DNA from: Larinioides sclopetarius
Taxonomy: Eukaryota
Direction of reading: 5' to 3'
Length of the DNA: 64,000 nt
NCBI GenBank assembly: GCA_964023285.1
Contig: CAXIEN010000102.1
Span: 2,871,528-2,935,527 of the forward strand
A program made the position numbers and the translations under genes. Positions 27,001-61,674 of this stretch are shown piece after piece. Each line of letters begins with the position of its first letter. Position 1 is the stretch's first letter. The notes below the pieces were generated by a model. It did not search any database, had not been told where the DNA came from, and was given only the letters and a program-made list of their open reading frames with translations.

Positions 27001-27437
27001 GAAGAAAGTAAAAAGTTCATTATGTTTTTCAACAAAGTTTTTTTTCCCTCAGTAAAAAAAAAAACATGGTTTTTTAACCCTTTACTTGCCAAAGTATTCA
27101 GTATAATTCTTTAACCTTCAAATGGGAGGGACGCTCAGAGAGACCCGACTTTACAGCTTAAAAAGCAATCTACAGACTGAAGGTTAAAGCTTAAAAAATC
27201 TGAAAATTATTCTATAAGTATAAAAATTTCTTTTTAACGACAAATAAAAAAATCATTACTGCATATTGATAAAAATTTATTATTTTTCAGGAAATTTCTT
27301 CGTAAAAAAACCTTGTTCCAATTTCATAGTATTGGCATGCACATTTCATAATCAATGTTGGTTTATTTTACTCAAATCACAAGAACAGTTGAATATCTTA
27401 AAAAACTTAATGGCTGACAGCTTTTAAAAAAGTTAAT

Positions 27438-27552
27438 ATTATAGAAATTTGAAAATTATTATTATATTATAAATTTGAAAATTATTATTATATTATATAA
27501 ATTTGAAAATTATTATTATATTATAAATTTGAAAATTATTATTATATTATTA
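27438..27552. repeat. 27-29-bp minisatellite (AAATTTGAAAATTATTATTATATTAT)n, array half 1
   Basis: About 4 tandem units. The same unit resumes at 30975. Confidence 0.8.
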
Positions 27553-30500
27553 CTAGCTGACCCGGCAAACGTTGTTTTGCCATGTAAATAATTTCTAGAG
27601 AATTTCTAGGGTAGAAAAAAAATAACTAACTTATTGTAAGTGTGTAAGGATGTGGTATATGAGTGAAAAAGGCATGGAGCGCTGTGAACGATGAGGGAAT
27701 ATAAAAATAACAAAACACCAAACATTATTTTTAAAATTTATTATAATTTATTTTAAGTAATAATTATTTATATCATTAATTCATTACATAATATTAATCT
27801 CTTAATGCTACAGCGTGAATAATATTTTTTGTTAGCAAGTCTTTAGCTAATACAAACAAACTTGATGGTTTACCCACTCGAGAGCATGCAACGTATAATT
27901 GTCCGTGTGAAAAACATGGTGTGCTCAAATCTAAGCCACAAACAGACATTGTTTGGCCTTGGGATTTACTAATAGTCATTGCAAATGCCAATCTAATCGG
28001 AAATTGAATACACTTAATTTGAGTTGGCACATCTGTGGGTATAATAGGTATACGTGGTATATATATATTTTCACCTCGAAACTTGTCATTTAAAATGGTG
28101 GCTTCGATAACGTTTTTCATTAATTTTTTAATTACTAATCACGTACCGTTGCACAGCCGTGGAGGGTTCAAATTACGAAGCAAAATAATTGGAGATCTAA
28201 CCTTCAATTGTGAGTTATGCGGTGGCATGCCTGGCAAATCCAGTGAGTTCAAAAACTCTGTTGGAAAATTTACAGTTTCAGTGGCATCGCAAACTGTATC
28301 AATAGATTTATATGATACCATGTCCCCCGGCAATAACTGTTGTATCTTCAGATTCAAAATGTTTTCCACACAATGTGTTCCACATTTTTTTGCCGCTAAA
28401 ATTGATCTTTCTGCAAGCCACTCGAGATTTATGTAATTCGTGTGTACATCGGGAAATATTTTTCCAATGAGAGCATCTTGCGATTCAATGATTGTGCAGA
28501 AATCAGTCGGTAATTTTACGCATCCAGTTTCATCTATAGTGACTTTTCCATCGTCGATATCTAAGAGTTGTTTTGAGAATGTTTCAGCGGATGGATCTTG
28601 AAGCATTTGAACGCGCATATTTACTTTCAGCTATACTTTTTCAACATTACGCCACAATGGCGATGATTTTAAGCAGGCGTTGATTTCATCAGCGTATGTT
28701 GAACGTGGAATGACGGGAAGTGTTTGTCTGAAGTCACCTGAAAGGACTAAGAGTGCCACCAAATAGTTTGTTGCTGTTTTTAATATCTTTCAATGTCCTG
28801 TTCAACGCCTCAAGCGAATGTTTGTGTGCCATGGTACATTCATCCCAGATGATAATTTTACACTGTTTCAGCACTGCGGCTATGGACGATTGTTCTTTTA
28901 TGCTGCACACTGCGTCAATGTTATTTTGAATATTTAGTGGTAGCTTAAATACTGAATGAGCTGCTCTGACTCCATCCAATAAAGTTGCCGCAATACCCGA
29001 TGATGCAACGGCCAATGCGATGCCATTATTTGATCGTATTTCGGCGAGAATTAGCGAAATAAAGAATGTCTTGCCAGTTCCACCTGGTGCATCTAAAAAG
29101 AACCCACCTTGTCCTGCTGAAACTGCGGCGAGCATAATGCGGTCGTAAATGGTTCTTTGTTCCTCATTCATTAGTGGGACATTGCGAGTAACAATCGCCG
29201 CCATTTCTACAGTGTTGTACTGCAGTTCACGATTCATTTCAGTGTTCATTAAATCAGTTGCACCTCGATTTGGCGAATTCATACCGAAATGACTGAGTGG
29301 TAAGTTGGCAATGATAATGCAAAGATCCTCAATCGCAATCAATGCTTCATTGTGCATATCGTCGCTGAATGTTATCTCGAGATCGTTACACTGTGTACAA
29401 TGTTGATGCAATATATCATCAGTCATTGAATCTTTGTGATTATCCCACAATATCTCTGCTCGGGCTGGAAAACATGTAGTCAACACTATAGCGAATAGTA
29501 GATGAATTTGTATTGCTGTACAGTTCAATGGTGCTTCAGCAAGCATACATTCCCACTGGTTGTCATCTTCCAGCAAGGCATGCATCTTTATACGTTAGAT
29601 ACTGTTGCCCATTCACTTTACGTATATCTTGAAATGACAATGGGCCAGTAACATTAACCAACAACAGTCGAAGATAAAAACACTCAGTCTGTCTTAGATT
29701 CACTGTAAATACTCGCCCAAGGCGTTTGATTTGAATAAATTGGGACATGCATCAACTGGTGAACCACGCAATTGCGCCATTCTCACACGCGCTCCAGTAT
29801 TTTCTTCCTAAACTTGTTCTTCGGTTCTTTGGGCTCTTCTATTTCGAATGCTTCTAGATTTATTTGTATCACGGCTTAAATTGGCCCCTTTGCGTTTTGT
29901 TGGCATTGTTCACTGTACAATACAAAACACACATAAATAGAACTGATTGAATTATTTAATGATGAAAATTATTATATTAATAATTTATTTTATCTTTGAT
30001 TACATTAAATATACATGTAAAAATTAGATAGTTTCACAAAAGCGAAAAATTTTATTTTTCTTAATTATATCGAAAATGCATATTGTTAGAAATAGTGAAA
30101 AAAAAAAATTCTGTAGAAGTTAGAGCTCTTATAAATAAACACACAAAAAAAAATTCCCAATTGTAATAAAAATCTAACTTTCACCGAATTCGTTTTTCAC
30201 CATTCCCAACAATATTTTCGTTATAAATACGAAAGAATAACGTATAAAAAGTAATTTATACTTACAACTCAATAGCCGTTGTTTGCGGGAACTCGTGACA
30301 CGTGTTGAGTATTTTAGAGGTTATGTAAATCACTTAATTAACTGATCGTGCGAATTACACTCAAAATTAATAATTTTATTAGTTATTAATAATTAATTAT
30401 ATTCAATAATATTAGTTATTAATAAATAAATAATAAAGTTACTTGAGAATATATTTGATATGAGAGTTACACTGAGATAGTGAAAATGTTTAACTACTAC

Positions 30501-30974
30501 GCTTGACGCATAAACACTAATAATAGCCGAAAACTGTAGAGGGAGTGAGAGAAGGCTTATTGTTTGAGAGAAATAGGAGACCATCTTCGTTGTCATCCCT
30601 ACTCCGTGCTGTTTACTGGGTGAGAAGTGACACCGGTAGACACATGGAGGGGATGACTTACCAAGTGATAATAATTGATGTTATCGAGCGGGATAAAAAA
30701 ATGATAAAATTATTAAAATGACTATTAAAAAGCAGGGGTTGGTGATAGAAGAGTGAAAATTTAGGGTTATATGTATTTTTTTAATGTCACATAATACAAA
30801 AATTTAAAAAAATTTATCCAAAAAATTGGGGTGGACACCCCTTATCACTTAGGGGTTTGAAAGATAGATAGTAGCCGATTCTCAGACTTACTGAATATGC
30901 ATAAAAAATTTCATAAGAATCGGTCGTGCCGTTTCGGAGGAGTATGGGAACGAACATTGTGACACGAGAATTTT
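27553..30974 (-). mobile_element. Helitron remnant, Rep domain absent
   Basis: On the minus strand the 3' end reads hairpin ggcaaaacaacgtttgcc, then gggtcag, then CTAG, followed by host T at 27552. The 5' end reads TCTAATATATAAAA, preceded by host A. Removing 27553-30974 restores a perfect minisatellite junction tatattatta|tagaaatttg. A Pif1-like helicase lies inside. Confidence 0.6.
27794..29760 (-). pseudogene. Helitron Pif1-like helicase domain, frameshifted into four or more ORF pieces
   Basis: Motifs seen: SFQDIRKVNGQQYLTYKDACLAGR and HALLEDDNQWECMLAEA (the Helitron helicase N-terminal signature). Walker A GGFFLDAPGGTGKTF. IIWDECTMAHKHSLEALNRTLKDI. The C-terminal piece FAMTISKSQGQT..GQLYVACSRVGKPSSLFV. 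Confidence 0.8.
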
Positions 30975-31150
30975 ATATATTAGATAGAAATTTGAAAATT
31001 ATTACACAAATTTGAAAATTATTATTATATTAGTATAGAAATTTGAAAATTATTATTATATTATTATAGAAATTTGAAAATTATTATTATATTATTATAG
31101 AAATTTGAAAATTATTATATTATAGAAATTTGAAAATTATTATTATAGAA
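30975..31150. repeat. same minisatellite, array half 2
   Basis: About 6 units of tagaaatttgaaaattattattatattatta. Confidence 0.8.
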
Positions 31151-32439
31151 ATTATTGGATAATTATATATTTTCCATTTAATATTTTTCTTGAACCATTC
31201 TTGTACTGAATGAGTTGATAAGCACACTAGGCCACTTTCCTACATGAAACTATATCCGTCCAACTGAAAGTACCGACCAGTCACTGTTGATATCGACTAC
31301 GAAAAACAAGTTTTTTTAGAGAAATCACCGGAGTTAGGAGGTAACATAGTGTGCTACCGACCGCTATTGTAAATAATTTCTTTCAAATTTGGCTGGCGCC
31401 AAAGCACTCAGACTGGTTTTTTAAAAACGAAGCAAAAAAAATTAGGATCATTAATTTCATCTGGCCATTTATTTATGCTGGATTGCTGTTTTCCATATTG
31501 CTAATTTAGAATACTTCATTTCCCCTATTTCTTTGGATTGAAAATTTTCTTTCAGAATTTTTTGTTTTGTAAGTAGTCGTGCAATTTTTTTTCTTTTGGT
31601 TGTGATATTGCATTATTTAGCATGTAGCAAAATTTTATGAATTTTTCTTCTCTTGTGTGCATTTTTAGGTGTTAGTGCACACAATCAGGAGCAAAAGGCA
31701 GGACTGTGTGCGAAAAAATTTTCATCAAAAGGATAAATGATGCACCACCCAGTAAACCCAGCCTAGAATGATCTCTGCATAATAAATTATTTTTTCATTC
31801 TTAATTTGCATTTTTGTGCAAAAAGTAAGCTTTTTCATCGGGATTTTCTTCTCGTCCAGATGTAGAGGAAGGGATAACTACAATTTATCTGCAACTCCCA
31901 TCGCATTTCTCTTTTTTGAATAGTGTTCTGCAAAGGCAATAATTTATCTGCAGCACCCATTGCCATGCTGCACTGATGTCCTAATTTTTTAAGGATTTTG
32001 GTTTACAGAAACTATGAGATTTGAGTGTGTGTGTGACATCATGATAAACCAGTGGAAGTAGCCTTCCCTAAACGTTCTCGTATAGTTTCCCTGAATTGGG
32101 TCGTTTCCCATCTACCAGCTTTAATAAAAAAAAAATCCACCGAATGTAAAAACTAAAAACCTGATAAAAATTTTTGAATCTGCTCTTAACGCGAAACGTC
32201 ATTTTCACGTAATTAAAATAATCTAACTAATATCAGATTTCGCCAAAAGGAAAAAAAAGCATCCAAATGAAAGAAAAAAAAAACACCTAGGGAAGTCCTA
32301 TTAGACACAATATTTTCCTTTGCTCACAAAACGACGCTTTGCGCATGCATGCGCATTAAAAATTTGGGGAAGCAATTAAGCCACTTCTATTTACACGAAT
32401 GGGGCGAAATTTTTACATAAGTGTGCAATTTATATTAGC

Positions 32440-32930: not shown

Positions 32931-35562
32931 TCAAACCAAAATCCTGGATTCACCACTGTTTAGTTATATTGTACCTTTACAAAAAATACAATGGTTATAT
33001 GAGGACAAGCTCAGTTGTTTCAAATTTGGACAATGAACGAGACAAAGCATTTCAGATGTAATGTGTTATGTTCAAATATACGAATACTCTTTAGTGAAAT
33101 TGAATCCAATTAACCATTATTCCGACATGCCTTTATTATTATGCAGCATATCTAGAAATAAAAAGTTAAGATGGATCTAAGTAAATGCTTATAATTTAGA
33201 ATTCTAATAAAACCAAGTTTTTCTCGTTAGTACAAAAATCATACTATTGTGCAAAATCTGCATGTTAAAGAAATTCAACATAGGTGGCAATATTTCTAGA
33301 ACAATTTCTTTGGTATCAAATCTATTTTGATCGCAATATTAATCAGTAAATCCTCAAGGAAAACATGGCTTAACGATGTTCCTTCAAAAAAAGTTATTTA
33401 CTGTAAGCAGTCTTATCCACAAGCTTTTGTATACAGAGACTCAAAGTTGTACATATACCCCTATGTATCCAAGAGAAAATAAATGTCCTTAATTTAAATA
33501 ATTATAAAGCTCTTTGCTTTTAACCACAATTTAAACCCTAAAACTTCAGCATCAATCAGATTTAAGAAACATGATATACTATGTAAAATATTTTATACAC
33601 ACAATATTCAAATTACCCAGTAAATAGATAAACCAATCCCAATTGTTCTTAATTTTGGTAACAATACCCCTTAACTTGGAGCCAATATAGCTCAAACAAA
33701 ATATGTGAATTTTACACTTTCTTAATAACCAAAATGGACAGATAAATTAAGCAGGGTCAATACGCCACCAATATTTCCAAGAAAAAATGCATCAGCAGCA
33801 CCCTCACACCTTTAATGATATCTGCTATTTTGGAACCACAAATGCTGAATTCTGCTACACATCTAATAAATGAGGAATCTGGAATCGTAAACTTTCATAA
33901 AACTAGTCCAAGTCACATGCCTCAATATTTTCATAATCAATTTTTTTTACTACAGCATATATCCAGTACTAAACTACAGATGAAATCGAAAAGAAACTTT
34001 TCTTTATGAGTAGTACAATTGTTGTATCCGACACTTTTCAGAATTTCACACTCCATAGAGTTCTTCCGGTATTAGCCCCCATAATCTAAACAGGGGTCAT
34101 AGCAGGGTCAGAAAAAATATACAATTCTAAACGAAAAAAAAATAGCAGTTTTAAGAAGAAAATATAGGAGTTTAAAAGAAAAAACATAAGAATTATAGAG
34201 AAATTACACTGTCAGAGACGTTATGCAAAACCTGAATTTGTTTTAACAAGCAGGTACCATTCAAAGCTGCTGAATGAACATATGAAAATGTAACAGATGT
34301 AAAAAAAAGCAAAAAAGTCCTATTTTTAAAACTTCTTTTTATCGAATTAAGTTGCAATGCGATGTCTTTTCAGTTTTTCTCCCTTTTAAGTAAGCAATTT
34401 GTGCCCTGGCTGCAGAAGGGATTGTGAAAAGCATACTTCCGCCATATTGTTAATTAGGAACTGCTTTTTTCTCGTATTAGCTTCGCTAATTAAAGGAATG
34501 GCTGGAATCAACAGCTTTTTTAAAATGTTCTGCTTGATTTCTTAACTTTTTAATTCATCATCACACTTCCTCTTCTAATTTAAAACTGCCCTTTCTTTTT
34601 GCATACAACTTGTGGGCTTCTCCGAAAGATTTCAGCATCTTGAGAGAGATGGGAATTTGTTACATTACTACCTCTGCTTCCGATTTCTGCCTCAGCTATG
34701 TGAAGACTATTAATTGTCTTTCGTTCAAAGCACAAGATGTCATATAGCAAAGATTTACAAAAAAAAACACATTTCAACATCAACTTGTCATGACATATGT
34801 TCAATACCACTTTAATAGATTAAAAGAAATTATGATATTTATCATTGCCAAAATTATTTTTCATTTGTAGTATAGTAGACTAGTAATCATCATATTTGGT
34901 GCAACCTGAGGAATTTTACATAGTTACGAATCCTGGCTGGAGGTTCAAAGATTGAATGGACTTTGAAAAAGACGACACAAAAAGATTTAATTGTATTATA
35001 CATTTACAAATATTTACACTAGGTTAGGCATAAGCAATCCAATCTTCAAAAGACTTCAGCAGATATACAAATCACAGCACTAATAAGAATTTATCACAGT
35101 CAGCAAATTCTCAAACAGTATTTAACTAGTGCTAATAAGTACTTCAGTTGACCAGCCTATTTGTTGATCAGAAGTTCAACTTTACTCAAGTCTGATCTCA
35201 AATATTGTCAATTAACAGACTTAGTTAATCTCTCTCTTTCTCTACTCACAAACTATCCTGGTTAACTGAATCTAATATAATCGAATCATTCTATTGACTT
35301 AGCAGTTAGCTTTTATAACTGTTTAACAGGAAGTGACACAACAGGAATTAAGTAATATCAAAAAATTTCTGGTGGAAGTAAAGATGTATTCAAATTCAAA
35401 ATGTTATCTAGAAAATTCTATTTGTCACCAACTCTGGCAGTGTCACTAAATATAGTAGCCAAGTTCACCAACTCAGTTTTGTCTCCAAAAATTATCACCA
35501 AGTCATTGCATTTATACAATTTGTAACATTGACTTAATCACGCTTGATATATGAATGAAAAG

Positions 35563-37850
35563 CAGTGGCGTGACTACATAAAATGGCGCCCAGGGCAAAT
35601 CTGCCCCCAATTTTTTCTTTTAATATGATCCTTATTCTATTTTCGGAAACGTTTTGACGTGGAATGCAAAGTTTAAAAAGGGATTAAAACTTAAAAAATA
35701 ACAAACATTTTTAGTTGATAGGAATTAGATTTGTTTATTCAACTGCATTGAATTTTCACTGAAAATTTGATACATTTTAAATCCTTAAATATTGCTTAAA
35801 TAAAAGAAATTCGAAGTTTTTTGAAGAACTTCAGTTACATAAGAAATTTATAAATAAAAGGCCCATTCCATTTATGCACTAATCTTTTAATCCATTGGGG
35901 AAAAAACCGCATACATAATAATTATTAAAAATATATATAAACATTTTTGCCAATAATCAGTATATGTACTGGTTATAATAATACTGGTGTCACCCATCCG
36001 AATTATTTTTGGAGTAAATTGAAAAGGTTTTTTTTTATTAAATCGTTTGCATGTAGTTCAATGCAGTAGAAAATATTTGTGCTACTCCTAGTGGTCAATT
36101 TTATTCTGCTGATGATTCATGCCACAATCTATGAAATAAGACAACTGAAGAGGAATCCAAAAATATCCATTCTTAATTCGAATAACTACAAAGGTAAGGA
36201 ACTAAAATGAACCAAAATCCAGGCTTAACTCAAGTTAAAAAAAAAAAATCACTTATACCACTATTATTCTAGCCAACAGATATAAAAACTCGAAACATTG
36301 AAGTTAATAGCTACTGCAAATAAAATCATTCCAAAAGCTGTAATGATTAATAAATATATTTACGAATGATTAATAAAATTATCTGTTGTAAATATAACAA
36401 TGTTTACAACAGAATTCATCAAGTTTTCATACAGATCTTTAAATTTTTTAATCAAAATTGATAACTAATAATTTTTATGTTTTGTCTACCATTTTTTGAT
36501 TACATGCAATTGGGGGATACGCAAATGCAGGACAAAATGCTAATTCAAAAATAAATTTAAATTATTAATTTGTTTTTTATGTGAAGTTTTGTACTTCCTT
36601 TTTATTTTAGTGAACATTATATATTTGTGTGTATAAAAAATACATTATTTCTGAAAAGTTTTAATACCTTTAGGGTATCTGAAAAGTTTATTGACAAAGA
36701 GTTTATGAATACAAACAAATCCAAAATAAGAAAAATCACATTTTTAATAAGATTTAAAATCAATAAATAAATTGTAGATTCTGAAATATTTTTCTGACTT
36801 ATGAAGGTAATCGAAAGAATTCCAGTTTTATTTTGGATATTTTTTTTTAACCACCGAGGCAAATTTTTTGGACAAAAAAATAATTAATTTCAAGTACAGC
36901 AAGTTTTATAAATTTTCTGCCCGATTCTTTTGAATACTGCGAAAAGGTAGATCTGAAGACCATTATCCTGATTATGGTAATTAATTCTAAGAAATATATC
37001 ATCATGCCCATATCATATATTATCATAAGCTCACTTGCTGGAACAAAATTGGCCAAATCAAATTTCTAAATGCTGAATATTTCACAGACAAACTCATGAT
37101 TCCAGATGTTATCGAATAGAAATCTTGAACTAGACATCTAATTTAAAACTAAAATTGAAGTAGTCAGTATAAAATTTAAATTATTTTCACTGAAATTAAT
37201 AAATATACATTATCATCCTATTCAAAAGGAGCTCCAGGCTTGGGCATGATATAATTTCTTAGAATTAATTACCATAATCAGGATAATGGTCTTCAAATCT
37301 ACCTTTTCACAGTATTCAAAAGAAAATGGTATAAAAAGGGCATTCCTTTTTTTCTTGGAGGGTGAGAGGAAGCTGCTGTAAATGTTTGAGAAGTACTTCA
37401 TAATTAATACATAAACCTTTTTGCTATTTCTTAAAAAATTAGTCAAATTATTTAACATCTGTTTGCAAGGTCTGCAGCTTTTACCAGCAATTGTAAAACT
37501 TTATGCATTCTTTCTCTCTCGTATTTTTTTAACATTTGGCAGAGCAATTGCATGAAGTTTTCTGAAATATTTTTTTTTAAATAAACACTACAGCAATTTT
37601 ATCATACAAATTCTGCAGTCCAAAAAAATCGGAAGTGTAATATTACTTGTTACTTTTTTGAAGCTCGCAGTTTCTGCAATTCTAAAAATGACTCCATCTT
37701 AAGGATCTCCTCACATTTTGTTGAAACCATTCAGCTTTTAAGTGTTTTAAAAAATTCTACTTTTGTATTAAATCTAACCAATCAATTTCTTAACTTGTGC
37801 CCCCTTGCAACTGCGCCCAGGGCACCTGCCCCACCCTTGCTACACCACTG
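35563..37850. mobile_element. non-autonomous hAT-like element, TIR CAGTGGCGTGAC / CAGTGGTGTAGC, 8-bp TSD ATGAAAAG/ATGAAAAT
   Basis: The termini cagtggcgtgactacat..ggcgcccagggca and tgcgcccagggcacctg..ctacaccactg are inverted. It is flanked by atgaaaag (35555-35562) and atgaaaat (37851-37858). No long ORF. Confidence 0.65.
36921..37330. repeat. about 90-bp near-perfect inverted repeat with about 235-bp spacer (foldback)
   Basis: 36921-37010 ttttgaatactgcgaaaaggtagatctgaagaccattatcctgattatggtaattaattctaagaaatatatcatcatgccca is the reverse complement of 37241-37330. Confidence 0.8.
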
Positions 37851-39871
37851 ATGAAAATTCTTAGCAATGTTATTTAAAGGAAGGTGTTTAATTAATAATT
37901 AAAAACAGCAACTTTGAAATTTTTTGCTTCCAAATACAAGTGCTTTCTATCTTAGTTTTTTTTTGGCAAGAATTTATTCTCCTTGAAGAACCTAATCAGA
38001 ATTTTTCGGGTCAAGAGAAAGGAGTCTGGATAAATATTTCTTTTTCGATTTTTCAGGCATTATAAACGTTTTTATACAGTACAGTAGAAGTTCAATATCC
38101 CAAAATCGAATGAATCTGGAAAAAATTTGCAGTTATATATGTGAGGTTACCCTTTCAAGCATTAAAAATAATAAAAGTGTATTTGTAATAATGCTTCAAT
38201 TTAAAATTTCTGGAAAAGTTCAGCATTCCATGAAATGTTGAGTAAGTGAACAGCAAACACAGTTTAGCCTGAGCCATAGTAATTTTGGGTTCTTCTGAAC
38301 TCTTTCTCATCTCCAGTCCACTAATCACACACTTGAACTCTGAGTCAAGCTCTGTAACTTTTTGAAATGTTGTTTAAGAAAAGTTGAGAATTTTTTAAAC
38401 TTCTCATTCTGCATATCGCTCCGGTTCTGTGGGGGTTCCTGCTCTTACCCGATTCACTTTTTACAGTAGATAGTTGGGTGTGAAGGAAATAGTATTATTC
38501 ATTTAAAGCAAATTTAAGAAAAAATTTTGGCCCTACAAAATTGTTTTGACATATCAAGGTTTTGAGTGAAAACTCTTTGACATAGCAATCGAAACTAGCA
38601 TTACAGAAATATGGAATTTTGTGGGGGGAAATATTTGAGTAATCAAGAGTATATCAGTTCAGCTATTTAGTCAGTTAAATCAGAATAATTTCAGATAATA
38701 CTTTATGGAGACATTTTTTGCATAGAATTTAATGGTAGATGTAAATATATATATATATATGAGAGTATCTGCAAAATTAAGAATATAGGACTATGAGGCC
38801 TCTCTAAATGTTAATATGAAGCAAAAATAAAACTCTTATGTAGAACTACAGAAAAAAAATTAATCCATGTAAACTAGAATTTCTGTAAATAATAAAATTA
38901 TGCTAATGAAGGGGTGTGGGGAAGCGCCTACAGACTTTTGTTCGACAGAACACCCACTTCACAATGTATTATAGAAAAAAATAATAAATAGGAAACTTAA
39001 TCTCTAAGCCCTTCCTTCTTAAAACATACATTTTATATGAATCTTTTCAATATTTTTATAGCACAACTACCAAGATGGGGAGTCATCTTTCCTGTATGAA
39101 AGAATTAAACCCATTACTATTTTACTACATACAAAAAATAATGGTGAATCATGTATCATTCCAAATAAAACACTTCAGTAAAATGAGCAAGGTTGAAGAT
39201 TAATGAGACGTTAAACAAGAAAGTGGTTTTCTATTTTTTATTTAAGAATTTGACAAATTGATGCATTTATATGATTCCAATCTGCAAAGAAAAAAAGATA
39301 ACAAAATTAGTACAACATGCAATAATCTTAAAACATAAATATATATCACAATTTGAAAATATAAAAAGAATCATGAATAGAGACGTTCTATTTTAAATTA
39401 AAATCTTAATGTAAAACTGTAATTCTACTCGAGACAGATTTAAATTAGAAGTCAACCACTAGTTTTAAAAAATAAGCTGCATAAATGACAGTGGTATAGA
39501 CATCCCAACTTAGTTTTGAATAATTTCTAATACCGTTTGCAAGTAGTTTGAGTAGAAAATTTTTAAACTTCTCCTAGTGGTTAATTATTGTAGTACTGAA
39601 ATATGTAGCCAATTACAGCAAGAGAAACTTAATATTTTTTTTTCAAATTGAAGTAAACATAATATTAAATACATATTAATGGCTTTATATCCCATTATCA
39701 ACATTAAAATACTCACTCATCCAGCTGATTATCAAAAATAAAATTTACCGATGTTAAGTATAAAACTAGTATGATGTGTCCACCACAAAACTTTCTTCTA
39801 TATAATTATATGATTAAAGCCGAGATATATACTACAAACAAATATTGAAAAATTTATGAAAAAATTGAAAT

Positions 39872-42440: not shown

Positions 42441-42586
42441 GTAATTTAAAAACCATAAATTTTTCTAGAAAATTTCCAGTTCAATAACAAGAGGAAACAG
42501 TTCATAAAAAGATGTTTAACTTTGATAAGAAATACCAATATGAAAGATTGAAGATTAATATAAATGGAATACAAAAAGCGACTCAC

Positions 42587-42656
42587 TTTGTTAGCAACAT
42601 CCAATGCATCATAATCAGGAGCCAGTTTCACATATGCTTTCTTTTGTCCATCAGGT
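42587..42656 (-). CDS. RpL23A: ribosomal protein L23a coding exon (.. R)[23 protein letters not shown]; terminal IGII exon not located
   Basis: Acceptor ctctctcag|ACCTGATGG. The exon translates to [23 protein letters not shown] and is followed by donor gtgagt. It matches the uL23 C-terminal region [23 protein letters not shown]. Confidence 0.85.
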
Positions 42657-42980
42657 CTGAGAGAGATGAAAATTAAAAATAATTATCGATATTCAATTCA
42701 TTACTCGCATACATTTAAACTTTGGAAGAAAAAAACTGAAAAAGTTGAAATTTCTAATAAAATATACAAAATTATAGTCTTATTCAAAATGATTTTACTT
42801 GATTTTTAAAAAATAAAAGCATTAAAAAAATAAATGAACCACCAAACTATGAATAAAGCTAATTTTTGAGTTAATAATACTACTTGGACATTGTCCAAAT
42901 AATTTCTTTGCTAAAAACCTCACAATTTTAAAATATCACAGCTCTGAAATTCAGTCAATAAACTTTGATATTATAATATA

Positions 42981-43773
42981 CAGGGTGACTACAGAAACTT
43001 TGAAAAAAAATTCCCTGACTTTTCCCTGACTAAACTTGAAACATTTCCCTGATTTACGGCAACTGATTACATTAGTTTTCAGGCTTTTTTTCCTACTTTG
43101 AATCGCTATATATGCAAAATAAACTATATTAAAAACACATTAACCACTTATTTAATATGAAAGAAATTATATATTTTTATGAAATTTAATTTAAAAAATT
43201 GAGTTAACATTCTAAATTTACATTTAATTTCTATATATGTATTATTATACAATACTTTTACTGTTTATAAATGTTTTATAACTATAGTGCTCTTTGCTTA
43301 TGTACGAGAATAGCATGATATATATTGCAGCATAAATACAAAAATAGTATAATTTACATGCCTAAAAATATATATTTTTGCATAATTAATTAGAGAAACT
43401 CTCAAAACAACACTTGAAATCTCTTTATTCTTTAATAAATCATAAGAAATCGATTACTCCAATGAAAACCTAATGATTTTACAAATGAATGCAAGTTTTT
43501 TTTCTTACGATTTATTATGAGAAATAATTTTAGACATAAGATCGTAATTTATGGATAATAACTCCAGTAATAAATAATTAATGTTTTCCTATTATACTTA
43601 AAATGAATCACTTATCAAGAACTTGCAGGGCACAAAATGCTCTTATCGGCAGTTTTCCCTGAGTTTGGCACATTTTTATGAATTTTCCTGACTTTTCCCT
43701 GATTTTTCCAGATCCATAAAATTCCCTGACTTTTCCCTGAAATCCCTGATTTCCCGGTTCTGTCGTCACCCTG
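42981..43773. mobile_element. full-length MITE, TIR CAGGGTGAC(T/G)ACAGAA, 5-6-bp TSD (A)ATATA; lies in an RpL23A intron
   Basis: Left end cagggtgactacagaaac. Right end gttctgtcgtcaccctg. Both flanks read aatata. Subterminal ttccctga(c/t)ttt repeats occur at both ends. No ORF. Confidence 0.7.
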
Positions 43774-44409
43774 AATATATATTTGCTCATTATTTATGTA
43801 ATTTAATATGTGCAGTTAGTCTCATTTTAAAACAGAAGTAATGCCAATAATCAGTAGATATAAAAATATGATGCATGAAAAATAATTTTCACAAGTTTCT
43901 ATAAAAAACAAATATCCTCATATATAGTTACCCTCATCGCTGACTGACTCTAACACTTGTCATGCGATTCAAAAAGGCAAAATTCTGTAATCGTTTGGTT
44001 TTAAAATCTGTCACGTGATACTTAAAAGTGTGAAATAAACTATTTTCAAAAATCAAATATCATGTGATCATAGAGCAATTTTAAGATTTGCTAAATAAAT
44101 AATTTGTAGAAAATTGACTGAAATTACTCAACTCTTGGAGATTCACATATATAAATTCAATTCTGAAAAACTTATACCTCCAACAATTAGAAAGAAACTG
44201 GCAAGAAATAATAAAAATTAATTGAATTAAACATATTGAATTGCTGCGAACTGGAAAACGTTTAGGTGAAATAATTTTGTATTAGATTGTAAATTTGTTA
44301 CAATCAGTTCTGAGAAAAGGTTTTCAGGTTAAAAGACGGTTTTAAACTGGCACAAAATTTCTAGTTAACTACATATTCTTCAACAGAATAGAATTGTGAC
44401 AAAAAAAAA

Positions 44410-44815
44410 TTAGTTGGAACAGCTGGGATATACGGCACCCACGACGATTTGGCGACGTTTCAATGTAAACAAACATGGCGGCTGGCGAGTTATAATCGTT
44501 ATTCAAGATGGCGGTTATGTATAGTTTCTTATGAAGAAAAGTTCTTGAAGTAAACATTATGTTCTACGCGTTCCGGGCAATTTTTTTTACTTAAAAAAAC
44601 ATCGGCGGCTTCGCTTTCGGCGAAGCAGCTCCCTAGTAGCTTCGCTTTTACATTAACTGTTAGGCAACTAGTTTTTTATTGCCCAGAAATGGAAAGCTCA
44701 ATCTAAAGATCTTCAAAATGGCGGCGCGCGATAGACGCAAACGCGAAAAGTCGCCACTCAAACCAAATCTCGCCAAGTCGCCTTGGGTGCCGTATATCCC
44801 AGCTGTACCAATTAG
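44410..44815. mobile_element. about 405-bp MITE with about 40-bp TIRs, inserted 4 nt from the RpL23A exon 5' splice site
   Basis: Left end ttagttggaacagctgggatatacggcacccacgacgatttggcgac. The right end cccagctgtaccaattag is the reverse complement of ctaattggtacagctgggatatacggcaccc. No ORF. Confidence 0.65.
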
Positions 44816-44819
44816 TTAC

Positions 44820-44996
44820 CTGATCAAAGTGTTGACTTTTTGTACATCAATATTATACAACTTCTTTACAGCATTTCTAATTTGAGGTTTGTTTGCCCTC
44901 TTGTGAACAATGAACACTAATGTATTATTGTCCTCAATCTTTTTCATAGCAGACTCAGTAGTAAGGGGGTGTTTAATTGTAGACCATTGATCAAAT
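44820..44996 (-). CDS. RpL23A: ribosomal protein L23a coding exon (..[59 protein letters not shown](R))
   Basis: Acceptor tttgcag|ATTTGATCAATGG. Donor AG|gtaact. Splice phases match the neighbouring exons. It matches the uL23 core [44 protein letters not shown]. Confidence 0.9.
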
Positions 44997-46127
44997 CTGC
45001 AAATATAAATATACATAACAATTTATATTTTATATCCATTTGCAATGCCGACACCAATAAAAGAATGCTGTATTAAAAGAATGAATTTAAACTTAAATTA
45101 CTAAAACTAAGATCAACTGAACATACAAGAATAAAAAAAATAGCCCATTTCTTTGAATCAACAAAAATGTTGAACAATGTTCAATTAATTTCACATTAAT
45201 ATACTATCTGGGCATAACATTACAAAAAAAATGAAAAGTACGTAAAATAGAAAAAAATCGTTAATTATTTTTTCTATCAGGTGAATCAATCAATGAAAAC
45301 TAGAAATACAAAGACAAAACGGAAGAAAATCATGCCTGAACATACTTTTAATTGGAAGTTAACAGCAATCAAATTGCTTAATAAAAACTTTATATTTGAT
45401 ACTGAATAAAATAAGAAGTTCTGTCTATTATGGGATTTAGAAATAAAAAATGTGCAATATTTTGATGATATTCTTAAATATGTCACTTGATCTAATTTAT
45501 CAATACTTGTGAATCTTTAGTAGATTAATACTCTCAGTAATAACCTCTTTATTAAGGGCATCTATTCTTGATCATTTCAAAATGCCAACATTAATAGATC
45601 AGAATGACTTTACTCCAAAAGAAAGGTGACAGGTAACAAGTATAAGCATTATTTTAAGAATTCTTTATTGGGTCACACTACATGTAAACATACCCTACTC
45701 AACTCTCCATCTCACCAGACCAAGATGATATAAAAAACTGTCTACAAACTCAATTTCCGCACACACAAAAAAAAGTGTGCCTACCGAGTCCTATATTGCC
45801 ACCAATAGCAAAAGTGTTAAGTTATATGCGAGTGGAACGCCTGCATGCATGTATAACAGAAGCTATTGCTACCAATAAACAAAATCAAAACATGTTACAG
45901 AAAGAAAAATAAACTAAGATTTAAAATCTTACTTTAAAAATTCTGAAGTGATTTAAATTTAATAATGAAGAAACCTGTAAAAATATAACAGCCTACACAC
46001 TTTGAAATTTTTTACAAATGGCATTCGCCTACATTATATAGGTATATACCTCACTTCTGTTATAATGAAAAATTCCACCTGACACATGTACATAAATAGA
46101 GGATTTTAGAATCCAAGAATCATTAAT

Positions 46128-46381
46128 CAGGGTTCCCACTGTTATCAAAGAAAAAAATTTCAAGGACTTAATTTAAGAATCTTTTATGGGAAAATTCAAT
46201 GACTATAAAATTACACATTGCATGCTTACACATAAACTGAATTTTTCACTTGAAAAAATTTAAAATGTGTATTGTACAACTCTTTATGTTCATAAGTGTG
46301 AGGAGACAGATTATTGGCAGTAGCTTAAGAATTGAAGGACCTAATTTCATCAAAGGACTTTTAAGGATTGTGGGAACCTTG
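46128..46381. mobile_element. 254-bp MITE, TIR CAGGGTTCCCAC, 5-bp TSD TTAAT; in an RpL23A intron
   Basis: Left end cagggttcccactg at 46128. Right end gtgggaaccttg ends at 46381. ttaat lies on both flanks. The termini match those of the 10941-13494 element. Confidence 0.75.
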
Positions 46382-46945
46382 TTAATATGTTCTAGGTAGA
46401 GCTGTAATCTAATGTACTTCTGCTTCCTAAGACTATGTTTCACTAAGAAATACACTACCCCAAATGTTGATGCCAATTCATTTTAAATTGACAATGACAT
46501 ATTACAAAGAGCAATCTGATAATATTGGATGAAAAATGCCAACATGTAACAAAATGTAAAATTCTTACCATAAACGTTAATTTTTAATCCTATATGAAAT
46601 GGATATCCTAATGGAAATAGATAATATAATGGATATGGAGCAGGCAAATGACGAATCAATAAGCAAAAATAGACTTATTCTGTTTAAGAATCTCCAAGGA
46701 AATTTAGGGCATTCAAAAAATAATTGTGAATGAAATTTAGAGCACCATACATTAAGTTGTCAGATTAAAGGAACGAAAATCACAAAACTACACAAGTGCT
46801 TTTTTTTTATAAAAAATCTTATCTCACCAACTCAAAAGTCACTTATTTTGTTACTAATTGGTAACTTTTTAAATTATTAATTAGTATCAAATTAATACCA
46901 ACACATGACAAACAATCACATTATTTAATACTCCATAAAACTTGC

Positions 46946-47264
46946 CTAGGTCTCCTTGGGCAACTCTTCCTGGGATACTTGGGATTCCTCATCAATGTAA
47001 GGGTTCTTGGTCGTCTAAATTGGACAGTAGTTCTAATTTTCCTAACTCTGGTTCCATGGGCTCCTTTAACTACTTTCTTCTTAGCTGCTAGAGCTTTTGC
47101 TTTAGCCTGGGCAGCACCTAACTTGCCTTTTCCCTTAGGGGCTACCTTTTCACCTTTACCTGCTGGCGCTGCAGCAGCTTTAGAAGCAGGAGGGACATTT
47201 TCTTTTTTTGTCTCCTTGGGTTTCTCTGTTTTTGCTGGCTTAGCAGCAGTGGCTGCTGCTTTTG
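46946..47264 (-). CDS. RpL23A: ribosomal protein L23a coding exon (N-terminal A/K/P-rich extension through ..[31 protein letters not shown]); initiator exon not located
   Basis: Acceptor tcttcag|CAAAAGCAGCAGCC. Translation: (A)[57 protein letters not shown], matching the uL23 region [37 protein letters not shown]. The exon ends AG|GCAAGT, an apparent GC-AG donor. The phase joins correctly to the next exon. Confidence 0.85.
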
Positions 47265-49825: not shown

Positions 49826-50987
49826 CAGGGCCGTACCGAGTTGACCCTGCGCCCTTGGCGGATCTGCAAAGCTGCGCCCCACCGTAACTTTACACATTTT
49901 CATTATTTTTTTTCATCATTTCTATTAAAAACCTATCCAGAAAAGCTACATCCTTTAAAATGTTTTTATATTCATATTTCTCTGATTTGTTAAATGTGCA
50001 TATTTTGTGAATTATTAAATAGGTTTAATACCACATTTTCTAAAAGACAAAAATCGAACAAACTTTATATATCTTATTGCAGCTATTGAACATTGACTTT
50101 TCTGTAATACTTAATAAAGAAAATAATTTATTTTCTATGCATTCTGTATAGTGTATAGCTCATACATTAGTAATTATAAAAAAAGAGAGATTAGAGCTGA
50201 AATTAAGAATTGGGTACATATGAGATGAAAATTCAAGTTTTATAAATATCAAATAATTTTTTTTATATCACAGTTTCTTTGCCTGTGGTACAAGTTGTGA
50301 ATATTCAAAATTAATATTTTTGATGGCGGAAAACATAAGAATATTCAAAAATTTCGTTTCATCAAGTTTGTTTAAAAATAAGTTCTAAAGCTTATTTACG
50401 GAATAAGAAATAGGAGACAGTGGATTGATATCTATTAATTGAGTAATTGTTAGCTTTCGTCAAATATTAATAACAAATTATTGAAAAGCTGTTTTCACGT
50501 TGAACAATTACTGCTCCCGTATTAAAACATTTACGTATTAATTGAAAGGAGCTGAACATCCGCATAAGACGAAACTAACAAACAAAAATTAAATGGGAAA
50601 TTATAAAATATCTGAACGTCTTATTACAAACTAAATGAAAAAAGATAAGGATTTTAAAAACTAAAAAAATACTGAAGTAGAAACTAAATTTACAAAAACA
50701 ATTTCAAGAAAATATCATTTAAAAAAATATTACTATCAGACTTTTCTACAATAAATAGTGTCTTTTCTGAAGATAATATATCATTATAAAAAGATAAGTA
50801 TCAGAATTTTCTAAATAATAAGTTTTGTAATGTAATAAAAGTTCGGATTTTTAGGTAGATTCCTTATAGGAAAAATCTACCAATTGCAATGGTTCTCATG
50901 ACGCGACTTCCGGAAAATTTTTGCATATCTTCACCGATCATGACTCCTAGAACCCCAAACCACCCTCCGTTAAAAAGTTTATATGTA

Positions 50988-51060
<73 letters not shown>

Positions 51061-54836: not shown

Positions 54837-55131
54837 GAGATGTAACGAATAGTGATTTGGCCAAATATTCGGTCAAAAATTAGACCGAATATCTAATTTT
54901 TAAAAACACTACACTTTGATGATAAATCAAATATTACTCAGATTTTAAATAATAAAATTGTTCTTCTTATTATTTATTTTAATACATATTAACACTTCGA
55001 TAAATTTTTAGAAATATATTTAAATAATTACAATTGTTAGAATAAGATAATGTGTCTTCACAAATCTAAATAGATTATATGATAATATAATTATATTATT
55101 TATTAAGATCTGTGAAAGCCTTTTTTATATA

Positions 55132-55221
<90 letters not shown>

Positions 55222-55919
55222 ATTATATTTTTTTAGAAAATTTATTAAGCTAAAAAATATTTTTAAGATCTTGATTGTGTCATCCTCTGAGCTTTTCCCT
55301 TAACCGTAACAAATTCTTTTTATCCAAGTCAGAATGTGAAGTCCACACTTCCTTTATAAAAATTTTTCTTCACTTCTACTTACTACCCATAAAACATCTC
55401 GTTTCTTTAACCTTTTAACTGCGTTCTCTTTTTTATAAATGTGGTTTATATGCCACCTATATAAGAAAGATGCCCCTCATTGATAGGGTTAAAATCTATT
55501 TAATAATGCTTACACTCTCCAAAAAATTGAATAAATGATAGGATTTTTTTATAAGTGTATTGAAAGGTAATTCAGAAATATTCTTAAATAAGTACATATT
55601 TTTAAAAATATAATCCTGATTTTATTCGACAGAATATCTGGTAATCATTCGGCAAGAGGAATAGATTGCTTTTGCATTATAAATGGAGGAGTACATGACC
55701 TATAAAGTTATTAAATACTTTGACTACTATGTAATATAAAACCGAGTAAATGTTGGAAAATTTAAAAGAAGAAAATGGAAAGAAATATATAATTCTGAAA
55801 CGTTATTTTATTATTTAATACTATATTTTAGAGAATTATCTTGAAAGTATTCAGTCTAATATCTGTGTAATAATCAGCCAGCCGAATAACGATTAGTTGC
55901 CGAATATTAGTTGCATTCC
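54837..55919. mobile_element. copy 3 of the GGGATGTAAC-terminus element, carrying an (AT)n tract
   Basis: Left end gagatgtaacgaatagtgatttggccaaatattcggtc. The right end cagccagccgaataacgattagttgccgaatattagttgcattcc is the reverse complement of the family's left terminus. Confidence 0.6.
55134..55219. repeat. (AT)n microsatellite
   Basis: About 43 AT units. Confidence 0.95.
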
Positions 55920-56839: not shown

Positions 56840-58200
56840 AAAGGTTTAAAAGTAATGATTTTTACAAATAGGCGATTATATACAGACTAACTGACAGTCA
56901 ACCCTCTGACGGACTTAGCCTAAAAGTTTTTAAGGAGCTACTTTTGTGATGGTGAAACTGTCTACCAAATTTTATGTGTCTCGATATTCAAGTTTTCGAG
57001 TTATAATGTTCACGTGAACGCGGAGAGACAGACTTACCGTAATTGGATTTTGTTTCAAATTTGGTAGAAATCTACTATTTATATTTTCCTACTATTTATA
57101 TAGACCATATGCTAAATTTTATCCCTCTAAAATTAATAGTTTTTAAGTGATCGTGTTTATAGATGGATGGACATAATTCTAAAATTATATTTTTCGGACT
57201 CAGGGAAATCTAAAATGTGGAGATTCGTCATAATTTCGAGTTTGAATTTTTGACGATTACAAAACTTTCTCTTTTTATAAAGTAAAAACGTAGCGAGATA
57301 GATCAGTGGTGACCAAATGACTTGCTACCCGAATATTGACTTAAAAAGTCGTTTTAAATGACGTTGATTCTTTCTTGCGCTGATTTTTACTTTCTCGTAT
57401 ATACGAAGTATACAGAGAGAAAGTATTGTCATTGTCCGAAAATTCGAACTCGAGATTTTGACTGATCTACACGTTTTAGACCTCTCTAAATCCGAAAAAT
57501 ATGATTTTGGAATAGAGTCAATTCACGGTCACGTGACCCGGACAAAATGTCCGAAGACGCGCATGTCATCTAAGAGCTTATCTGCACCACTTCCACCGAT
57601 TGGTCTGCCGTTGACATCTTCCGCCGTGCTACGTTCTAGATGCTTAACTCATCAGTCTTATTTCTTTCCATATTTGTGTCAAAATGAAAATATACTGTGT
57701 GATTGGATTTCTAATCATAAAGCCAAACCGGATTGCAATGATAAAACGTTTTTAGCTTTCCTCAAAATAATTCAACATGCTTAACGTTACGGAGAGAATT
57801 CTCAATAGATCCGCAGAAATGACGAAATTTCCTTTGGTGCGGCCATTTTGTACCAGTCACGTGACCATGAATTGACTTCATTATATCTCTATGTATGTGA
57901 ACAGCATTAGTCAAAAACTATTCTAGTAACAGGGTTGAAATTTGTTTTATGTTCTTTACACATAACTTATAGGTTTCTTTCAAATTTTGGACAAAACCTA
58001 TGCACGGGAAGCCTGCCTGTCAGTTTTAAGTTGGGCGCAATAACTCATGGACTTAAATAGCTGGTGGATAAAATTTGGTACACATTTTTATTATCATAAA
58101 TGTAGATCCATATAAAATTTTGTGTCAAATCCGTCAAAGGGTTGACTGTCTATCCGTCTGTATATTCGCATATTTGTAAAAATTATAACTCTTAAAATAT
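56840..58200. mobile_element. foldback-like composite element with about 450-bp inverted arms, containing a nested MITE
   Basis: Left end tttacaaataggcgattatatacagactaactgacagtcaaccctctgacgga. The reverse complement of the right end reads tttacaaatatgcgaatatacagacggatagacagtcaaccctttgacgga. The inner ends of both arms carry the hairpin/TAAAAA module (57220-57300 and inverted at 57400-57470). Confidence 0.55.
57516..57877. mobile_element. 362-bp MITE with about 35-bp TIRs (AGTCAATTCACGGTCACGTGAC..), nested in the foldback element
   Basis: Left end agtcaattcacggtcacgtgacccggacaaaatg. The right end ccattttgtaccagtcacgtgaccatgaattgact is the reverse complement of agtcaattcatggtcacgtgactggtacaaaatgg. 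No ORF. Confidence 0.7.
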
Positions 58201-59778: not shown

Positions 59779-60166
59779 GTACAATAAACATATTCTATTT
59801 ATAAACATTTAGAATCAATTTATAATTCCGTACCTTCGAATACTCGGGGATTTTTATATTATAATTGAATAGTATTTCATAATTTGCTTTAGTTATTGCA
59901 TTTAATTTAGTAAACTGGTTATTAAGCATCGTTTTAACTGATGTAACTGCAGTATATTTTCTTACTTGCTTTATTTTAAACTTGAATATGTTATCCGTAT
60001 TTGGCGTGACTTTTTCTCGCCAATGTAAGTGTACATAATAAACATTACTGACAAATTTTTCTTTAATGGAAGTTATTTGAACACTAAATCTTTATTATTT
60101 CATATATGTCTTTTTCCTCGTTATTATTTTAATTGTGACCTTATGAACTTCAATATCATCATTATA

Positions 60167-61674
60167 CACTCATGTCCATAAATTAAGGATAAGTCAGAAT
60201 CACACAGAAATTGAACTCTAAAATAAAAATTTCACCTGTAGAATTATCACACACATCTTGAAGAAGAATATGCAAATTACAGGAAACCACCAGATGGCGC
60301 GGATAGTACGTCACAATGACGAGAGTGTAAGAGAGGGGTATATAAGGAATGGTGGCAAAGAAGTAAAATTGTTCACAAGCGCTTTAAAAGCCTTTTAGTG
60401 CAATAACCGCATAGTTATGGCACAAAGGAAGCATTTGGATGATTTTTTACGTGGTAAAATTATCGGACGACTGGAATGTGGACGTACCCAGCTGGAAGTA
60501 TCCGAGGAATTTGGAATCGCCCAGAGTGTCATCTCCAGGCTTTGGCAACGATTCCAAGATGATGGTAATGTGAGTAGATGTTACAGCACAGGTCAGACCC
60601 GAGTTACAAAGCCGAATGAGGACCGGTATTTGGCAGTTACTGCCAAAAGAAACAGACGGAGCACAGCATCAGACCTGTCTCGTCAGCTCTCTTCAGCTAC
60701 CGGTACGACAGTTTCAAGGCAGACCGTGTACAGACGCTTAGGGCACATTGGTCTAAATGCTCGTAGGCCTGTCAGATGTGTTCCACTCACCGCAACTCAC
60801 TGTCGCCTGCGATTAGCCTGGAGTAGAGAGCATGCATTGGGGACACCGCAACAGTGGTCTTGTGTGATGCTTTCCGACGAGTCCAGGTTTAGTTTGCAGT
60901 CTGATTCTCGCCAGACTTTCATATGGAGAGCTCCAGGTACCCGTTACCACCAAGAGAACACCATTGAACGACACCGTTATGGTGGTGCAGGATGGCTCGT
61001 TTGGGGAGGAATTATTCTTGGTTCCAGAACTGACCTGCATGTTCAGAGTGTAACGATGACAGGCCACATCTATCGGGATGTCATTCTGGAACAATATGTA
61101 CCTTTGTTTCGGGGCGCCATGGGTGCTGAATTTCTGTTTATAGATGACAACACCCGTCCTCACCGTGCAAACATTGTAGACGAATGCCTTCAATCGGAGG
61201 ATATCACCCGTATGGATTGGCCAGCATACTCACCGGACTTGAATCCAATAGAGCATGTGTGGGATATGCTTGGCCGACGAATTGCAGACCGTCAACCCCC
61301 TCCCACCTGTCTACCGGAACTTCAGAGGGCATTGCTTGATGATTGGTGTAATATTCCCCAAGATCAGATTGATAATTTGATACTCAGCATGCCTAGGGTT
61401 GTAAGGCCTGTATTGCATCGTCCGTCCGGGAGACATACTCCGTATTAACCATCATACTAACCATGTTATACTGTTTTTTGTAAATAGGTTCTTTTTTGAA
61501 ATTTGCTCCAGGGAGTAAAAATCGCAATTTTTATTAATTATGTCAAACATATAGCATCTTTTTGGCTCTTTACCTTTTGTTTAATAAATAGACTTTACAA
61601 ATAAGTCAAATTTGTTTTGCTTCTGTCTCTTTCTTTGCCTGAACTTCATTATCCTGAATTTATGGACATGAGTG
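60167..61674 (+). mobile_element. complete Tc1-family (DD34E) DNA transposon with TA target-site duplication
   Basis: TIRs: cactcatgtccataaattaaggataa at 60167 and ttatcctgaatttatggacatgagtg ending at 61674, 25 of 26 matching. Flanked by TA at 60165-60166 and 61675-61676. Contains an intact transposase ORF. Confidence 0.9.
60417..61448 (+). CDS. Tc1-like transposase, 343 aa, uninterrupted
   Basis: N-terminal paired-like helix-turn-helix (GRLECGRTQLEVSEEFGIAQSVISRLWQRF). Catalytic D in VMLSDESRF and D in FIDDNTRPHRA. Then 34 residues to the E in WPAYSPDLNPIEHVWD, giving DD34E. No internal stops. Confidence 0.9.
   Translation: MAQRKHLDDFLRGKIIGRLECGRTQLEVSEEFGIAQSVISRLWQRFQDDGNVSRCYSTGQTRVTKPNEDRYLAVTAKRNRRSTASDLSRQLSSATGTTVSRQTVYRRLGHIGLNARRPVRCVPLTATHCRLRLAWSREHALGTPQQWSCVMLSDESRFSLQSDSRQTFIWRAPGTRYHQENTIERHRYGGAGWLVWGGIILGSRTDLHVQSVTMTGHIYRDVILEQYVPLFRGAMGAEFLFIDDNTRPHRANIVDECLQSEDITRMDWPAYSPDLNPIEHVWDMLGRRIADRQPPPTCLPELQRALLDDWCNIPQDQIDNLILSMPRVVRPVLHRPSGRHTPY

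Follow-up and report, generated by a model that had tools for sequence, protein, structure and literature searches.

Transposons of the hAT superfamily carry a recognizable signature, a CAGTG terminus with an 8-bp TSD and TIRs beginning YARNG, and their non-autonomous derivatives commonly contain internal rearrangements resulting from abortive gap repair. The Foldback (FB) transposons of Drosophila, whose arms are long arrays of tandem sub-repeats, are flanked by 9-bp TSDs. Long hairpins are also known in Drosophila to be diced into endo-siRNAs (PMC12553114), and hairpins derived from transposons are often miscalled as small-RNA genes (PMC3495686). In yeast, DSB repair gives rise to foldback templated inverted insertions, mostly of 5-34 bp, which are primed on microhomology and whose second end is captured by end joining (PMC11724301), and the MMBIR model covers template-switch events of this kind (PMC2621351). 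The foldback described here, a pair of short inverted arms (L and R) around a unique spacer, is probably an ordinary and neutral inverted duplication within a dead transposon.

The foldback lies in a 64-kb stretch of DNA, analyzed as a whole and hereafter called the window, which has a G+C content of 29.1% and is eukaryotic and spider-like. The window contains Helitron-type PIF1 helicase ORFs (27794-29585, - strand), an intact Tc1-type transposase ORF (60417-61448) for which an exact-protein look-up returned no recorded protein, and the gene of ribosomal protein uL23/RPL23a. The best protein matches of RPL23a were all from spiders (Parasteatoda, Uloborus, Oedothorax, Stegodyphus and Nephila), its middle exon had 100% protein identity to spider uL23, and the best DNA match of its exons, in a Logan contig, had 78-85% nucleotide identity. 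The exon structure and the identity of the middle exon thus indicate a real, intron-bearing RPL23a gene in a spider-like chelicerate genome. Downstream of this gene, about 4.7 kb past its last exon, the foldback occupies intergenic DNA rich in transposons (Table 1).

Table 1 Positions in the window of the foldback, of its putative host element and of neighboring features.
Feature	Position	Strand	Remarks
Left TSD of the outer element, ATGAAAAG	35555-35562		8 bp
Putative non-autonomous hAT-like element (outer element) carrying the foldback	35563-37850		2288 bp; termini and TSD
69-aa ORF across L	36847-37056	-	TTG start; judged non-coding
Left arm (L)	36925-37010		86 nt; local alignment and blastn
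Spacer (predicted hairpin loop)	37011-37240		230 nt, AT-rich
R', degenerate third partial copy of the outer end of the arm	37201-37228		same orientation as R; just inside the right arm
First 10-mer, TATTCAAAAG, last ten bases of R'	37219-37228	+	direct repeat with 37313-37322
78-aa ORF across R	37222-37458	-	judged non-coding
Filler, GAGCTCCAGGCT, between R' and R	37229-37240		12 nt; contains the palindrome GGAGCTCC
Right arm (R), reverse complement of L	37241-37324		84 nt; local alignment and blastn
Second 10-mer, TATTCAAAAG, outer end of R	37313-37322	+	exact copy
Right TSD of the outer element, ATGAAAAT	37851-37858		8 bp
RPL23a exons (3)	~47160-46930, 44998-44819, 42661-42581	-	tblastn

An initial sequence-only reading had proposed that the foldback resides in a hAT-like element, and the boundaries of the outer element bear this out, with CAGTG... 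termini and an 8-bp TSD whose two copies match at 7 of 8 positions (ATGAAAAG and ATGAAAAT). The left terminus, at 35563, reads CAGTGGCGTGAC; the right one, ending at 37850, reads CAGTGGTGTAGC in reverse complement (...GCTACACCACTG as read on the given strand). The two termini match at 10 of 12 positions and fit the short TIR pattern YARNG, and the motif GCGCCCAGGGCA is found near both ends. A six-frame Pfam scan detected no transposase remnant or any other domain in the element, and blastn together with a relative search revealed no second copy of it in the 64-kb window, only AT-rich noise. The motif CAGTGGTATAGA is also present at 39489, with no collinear similarity after it. Classification as a non-autonomous hAT-like element, for which only the termini and the length of the TSD were available, is reasonable, and by its sequence the element is decayed and non-coding.

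The two arms aligned with 82 of 86 columns matching (95.3% identity over all columns, 97.6% when only substitutions are counted) and were paired by blastn with an E value of 3e-34 within the window, well outside what chance would produce. Arms of 90 bp with about 97% identity, some 235 bp apart, had been described before; the measured values, 86 and 84 nt, 95.3-97.6% and 230 nt, are close to these, and an ungapped repeat search returned the pair as 36913-36995 and 37254-37336 at 92%. The differences between the arms amount to two substitutions, both C/T transitions (36940/37309 and 36953/37296) and one of them at a CpG site, and two indels of one base each in the AT-rich inner end. The arm ends are sharp, and inverted similarity past them was not significant either inward (shuffle p = 0.17) or outward (p = 0.40). 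No internal tandem repeats were detected in the arms by a repeat search, and the spacer (37011-37240) lacked ORFs, domains and any inverted symmetry within itself. The whole unit spans about 400 bp (36925-37324). Neither blastn nor a match scan evaluated against a null distribution identified a further copy of an arm or of the spacer in the 64-kb window, and 24-mers and 26-mers of the arms had no match in metagenome and viral contigs, a weak negative result. This analysis concerns one locus, and dispersed copies may be present elsewhere in the genome.

Two ORFs run across the arms and are best read, on the sequence, as non-coding artefacts. That they are by-products of the palindrome, as first suspected, is in line with the protein and Pfam searches, in which neither had homologues or domains. 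All open-frame translations of the foldback, concatenated and compared with 5.8e9 proteins, had no homologue at E <= 10, and exact-protein look-ups of both arm ORFs returned no recorded protein. An exhaustive phmmer search of the 78-aa ORF against 1.84e9 representatives produced a single match, P0026, with 29% identity; this homology was rejected as spurious, P0026 being a protein with a 7-fold tandem repeat whose score was inflated by the repeats. In practical terms, the arm ORFs should not be annotated as genes.

The sequence around the right arm offers an indication of how the foldback could have arisen. R' matches the outer part of R (37295-37322) at 22 of 28 positions; outside the arms, no other stretch on either strand of the 64-kb window matches as well (22/28 or better). 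Its gapped extension to about 37167 is marginal (p ~0.004-0.01; p ~0.01 from the empirical null of the window), and no mirror-image partial copy was found beside the left arm. R carries the 10-mer that closes R' once more at its outer end, and L has the reverse complement, CTTTTGAATA, at 36927-36936; these are the only three sites of the 10-mer in the 64-kb window (37219, 37313 and, as reverse complement, 36927). The two direct copies bracket an 84-nt block (37229-37312) made up of the 12-nt filler and an inverted copy of 36937-37010, and the filler, GAGCTCCAGGCT, has no counterpart beside L. Deletion of 37229-37322 would restore the simple sequence ...CCTATTCAAAAG/AAAATGG... (the slash marks the junction). 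From base frequencies, we estimated by hand a chance of about 2e-3 that such a 10-mer recurs within about 30 nt of an arm boundary.

On these grounds we tentatively favor an origin in place, by inverted duplication, over the insertion of a second mobile element. The nascent minus strand, having just copied TATTCAAAAG and ending 3' in CTTTTGAATA, would have come off its template and paired with the same 10-mer on the other strand (36927-36936), some 290-380 nt distant. Copying of 36937-37010 (~74 nt) in the opposite orientation would have followed, then the gain of the 12-nt filler and a return to the original template immediately ahead of the 10-mer. Such an event would fall under template switching primed on microhomology, or templated repair synthesis, as in FoSTeS/MMBIR, with the priming homology supplied by the pre-existing similarity of R', a weak and older copy of the arm end. 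The expected outcome, in which a 10-nt direct repeat encloses filler and inverted copy beside R', is the pattern seen. The empty precursor junction would read ...ATCATCCTATTCAAAAG/AAAATGGTATAAAAAGG..., also written TATTCAAAAG/AAAATGG, with 37229-37322 missing but L and R' in place. We also considered that the 3' end of ...TATTCAAAAG simply snapped back onto its own strand, and rejected this, as it would copy sequence to the left of 36927 and not the arm. With its 10-nt bracket, filler and degenerate partial copy, the locus makes a clean and textbook-style candidate for a template switch primed on microhomology, the mechanism that we infer from this arrangement. Against it stand the post hoc recognition of the 10-mer bracket and of R', whose significance is about 1e-3 to 1e-2 and not overwhelming, the lack of clear microhomology at the return junction, and the possibility that R' is instead a subterminal repeat of a transposon family. 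Because the bracket is post hoc and the extension of R' marginal, we hold the origin in place as a tentative preference. The duplication itself was probably neutral.

The earlier suggestion of a short foldback MITE nested in the outer element could not be upheld. According to this explanation, the segment 36925-37324 would be a MITE or foldback-type transposon with 86-nt TIRs, inserted into the older hAT-like element. In its favor, the unit has the length (400 bp), AT-richness, non-coding nature and long terminal-type repeats of a MITE, and transposons and MITE-like inverted repeats (44416-44809, 57176-57513 and 56845-58196) abound in the window. R' could be explained as a subterminal repeat or as what is left of an older member of that family. 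The absence at the arms of a TSD of 2-11 nt, the one defining trait of MITEs that a single copy can reveal, argues against a nested MITE. A scan of the arm flanks covered repeat lengths of 2-11 nt at boundary offsets between -15 and +24 and listed exact repeats of at least 4 nt and one-mismatch repeats of at least 7 nt. No direct repeat touched the arm ends or came within 3 nt of them, and the sole exact 6-mer, TATAAA, was placed asymmetrically, a match to be expected by chance. For TSDs of 2-3 nt, direct reading of the immediate flanks (...CCCGA / AATGG...) revealed no common 2- or 3-mer. Since the arms have diverged by only about 2.4% through substitution, a TSD of the same age would be expected to be intact, and a genuine MITE located elsewhere in the window (44416-44809) and taken as control has 42-nt inverted repeats at 90% identity and keeps a perfect 8-bp TSD, AATTAGTT. 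Further points against a nested element are that no other copy was found in the 64 kb, in metagenome or viral contigs or in translated form, and that the arm termini (TTCTTTTGAATACTG...) match no transposon superfamily signature known to us. A TA TSD with CTGYG termini was also considered and was rejected, as it needs a perfect 22-bp palindromic target, TTCTTTTGAA-TA-TTCAAAAGAA. Because no TSD emerged from this test, the foldback should not be filed as a MITE, and we regard a nested insertion as unlikely.

The inverted repeat could also be an inherited internal feature of the family consensus of the outer element, for example from an autonomous parent rearranged at an earlier time. It lies wholly within the outer element, and non-autonomous hAT derivatives are often rearranged internally. 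The arms, at 95-98%, look younger than the outer element with its termini at 10/12 and its TSD at 7/8, which speaks against inheritance; this age argument is weak, because TIRs can be imperfect from the start. All things considered, we find this explanation distinctly improbable.

A separate question, one of function and compatible with every origin proposed here, is whether the foldback acts as a dedicated hpRNA or endo-siRNA gene, diced into 21-22-nt siRNAs that would regulate a target gene or silence the transposon family. The folding predictions agree with the previous expectation of a long hairpin upon transcription, giving near-perfect stems for both strands: the + strand RNA folded at -159.2 kcal/mol, compared with -74.1 +/- 5.0 kcal/mol for shuffles (z = -16.9), and the - strand RNA at -176.2 kcal/mol (z = -16.0), with an in silico stem of about 84 bp and a loop of 230 nt. 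The stem of the - strand is uninterrupted, as both substitutions become G.U pairs. The very stable, near-perfect predicted hairpins, the preserved pairing of the - strand and the conversion of long hairpins into siRNAs by arthropods with a Dicer-2 pathway, as in the hpRNAs of Drosophila (PMC12553114), would be compatible with such a gene. Two transitions are, nevertheless, too few to serve as evidence for selection on pairing. The arms showed no protein-coding similarity in any open frame (5.8e9 proteins), nor did a target-like match to them rise above the null distribution elsewhere in the 64-kb window; with no other site in the window resembling the arms, no target is visible for them. This lack of a protein-level match and of a second site weighs against an hpRNA gene, as do the shortness of the stem (~84 bp), its location within a dead transposon 4.7 kb from the nearest gene end, and the fact that transposon-derived hairpins are a well-known cause of false small-RNA gene calls (PMC3495686). 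No Rfam family reached its gathering threshold across the searched sequence. The sole sub-threshold match, mir-8186 (25 bits against a gathering threshold of 80), was at 36376-36416, in the outer element but outside the foldback, and is noise. A microRNA precursor was rejected, given a stem of 84 bp and a loop of 230 nt compared with a stem of ~30-35 bp and a short loop, and the lack of an Rfam match. Overall, the sequence carries no sign that the foldback is a small-RNA gene, and we consider a dedicated gene very unlikely.

Should the region be transcribed through, RNA from either strand would be predicted to form a duplex of about 84 bp, a plausible Dicer-2 substrate from which about four 21-22-nt products per arm could be released, matching only this element. 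Any siRNAs so made would be an incidental by-product and not the output of a dedicated gene. There is also a slim chance that the foldback represents a very young hpRNA locus, that is, a template-switch duplication in a dead hAT-like transposon that is transcribed and diced into endo-siRNAs. If true, this would be a chelicerate case of de novo hpRNA origin from non-genic DNA, and only with small RNAs mapping to the arms would the locus become interesting as an example of hpRNA origin.

The arms could also stem from a short dispersed repeat that inserted twice, independently and in opposite orientations, 230 nt apart, which would suit a window as dense in repeats as this one. The arms are only 84-86 nt, neither has a flanking direct repeat of its own, both end at exactly corresponding positions and no third full copy is found in the 64 kb, making this a very remote prospect. 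An assembly artefact, such as a palindrome from a chimeric long read, has nothing specific in its favor and is barely credible, as it would give long, perfect palindromes with no spacer and not short arms that are 5% different, indels included, and separated by 230 nt of unique sequence.

Repeat-rich arthropod genomes commonly contain inverted duplications and foldbacks within decayed transposons, and at present this foldback matters little. Compared with the hpRNA loci of Drosophila, which feed Dicer-2/AGO2 endo-siRNAs (e.g., hp-mir-997-1; PMC12553114), it has in common an inverted repeat, a long near-perfect predicted duplex and a sizeable loop. It differs in its stem, which at about 84 bp is among the shorter ones for hpRNAs, in its position within a dead transposon and in having no identifiable target. 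With MITEs it shares the length of ~400 bp, the AT-richness, the non-coding nature, the terminal-type inverted repeats and the transposon-rich setting but, unlike them, it has no TSD, no further copy in the 64 kb and no recognizable superfamily terminus. The likeness to Drosophila FB consists in the foldback architecture; an FB transposon was rejected because the arms here are unique sequence with no sub-repeats and no TSD.

The yeast foldback insertions and the FoSTeS/MMBIR events share several details with the putative template switch, namely an inverted copy taken from a few hundred nucleotides away, the creation of a new inverted repeat, one junction at a short stretch of exact homology (here of 10 nt) and, at the second junction, filler that is untemplated or of unknown source. 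Relative to the yeast events, the copied tract of 72-74 nt is longer than 5-34 bp, the priming homology lies within a longer, weakly similar tract of 28 nt (R'), and the event is deduced from one finished sequence. As in the Ds-like non-autonomous hAT elements, the outer element combines a CAGTG... terminus and an 8-bp TSD with the absence of a transposase, and internal filler and inverted segments such as those seen here are typical by-products of interrupted repair synthesis in elements of that kind.

At the core of both arms of the inverted repeat lies a 20-nt quasi-palindrome (36959-36978 and 37271-37290), which includes CCATTATCCTGATTATGG, is self-complementary at 16 of its 20 positions and may be due to chance. 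A short AT-rich palindrome in the outer hAT-like element (36376-36416) gave sub-threshold Rfam matches to mir-8186 on both strands, scoring 25 bits where the gathering score is 80; these were judged to be noise. When the window is compared with itself, the long (TA)n microsatellites show up as perfect 'palindromes', although they are simple repeats and not structured elements.

Other features detected in the window.
Feature	Position	Strand	Details
Tc1/mariner element	60159-61681		terminal inverted repeats of ~34 nt (60159-60192/61649-61681), 94%
MITE, ~394 bp	44416-44809 (44408-44817 with flanks)		42-nt terminal inverted repeats (GGAACAGCTGGGATATACGGCACCCA...)
Ribosomal protein uL23/RPL23a gene, with introns	42581-47160	-	exons ~47160-46930, 44998-44819, 42661-42581
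Helitron-type PIF1 helicase ORFs	28734-29585, 28139-28618, 27794-28120	-	within 27433-31171
Long (TA)n microsatellites	50980-51060, 55125-55228
Older inverted-repeat pair, outer	56845-56975/58068-58196		arms 79%
Older inverted-repeat pair, nested in the outer	57176-57279/57409-57513		arms 80%
Direct repeat, 320 bp, adjoining the older inverted repeats	54517-54836/57564-57883		87%
Dispersed repeat family	199-962/42981-43770		transposon fragments
Dispersed repeat family	13693-14069/25097-25482		transposon fragments
Dispersed repeat family	16707-17399/25476-26200		transposon fragments
Dispersed repeat family	17424-18113/50855-51637		transposon fragments

The Tc1/mariner element is possibly still active; its transposase ORF (60417-61448) is unbroken and encodes 343 aa with HTH_Tnp_Tc3_2 and DDE_3 domains. 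On each side of the PIF1 helicase ORFs lies an array of ~30-nt tandem repeats, one at 27433-27556 and the other at 30966-31171, and the two arrays are 85-90% alike. No obvious target-site duplication (TSD) was seen by eye for either of the older inverted-repeat pairs, and the copies of the dispersed families share 72-85% identity within the window.

The MITE, our control with an intact TSD, is bounded by a perfect 8-bp duplication (AATTAGTT). It was also found to lie inside an RPL23a intron, where the 5' splice site is just 10 nt away. Read along the minus strand, the sequence is CAG/GTAACTAATT/GGTACAGC..., which places the TSD at intron positions +3 to +10 and leaves the GTAACT donor in place. 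The protein encoded by the middle RPL23a exon is 100% identical to uL23 of Parasteatoda and Uloborus, and the window is therefore spider-like.
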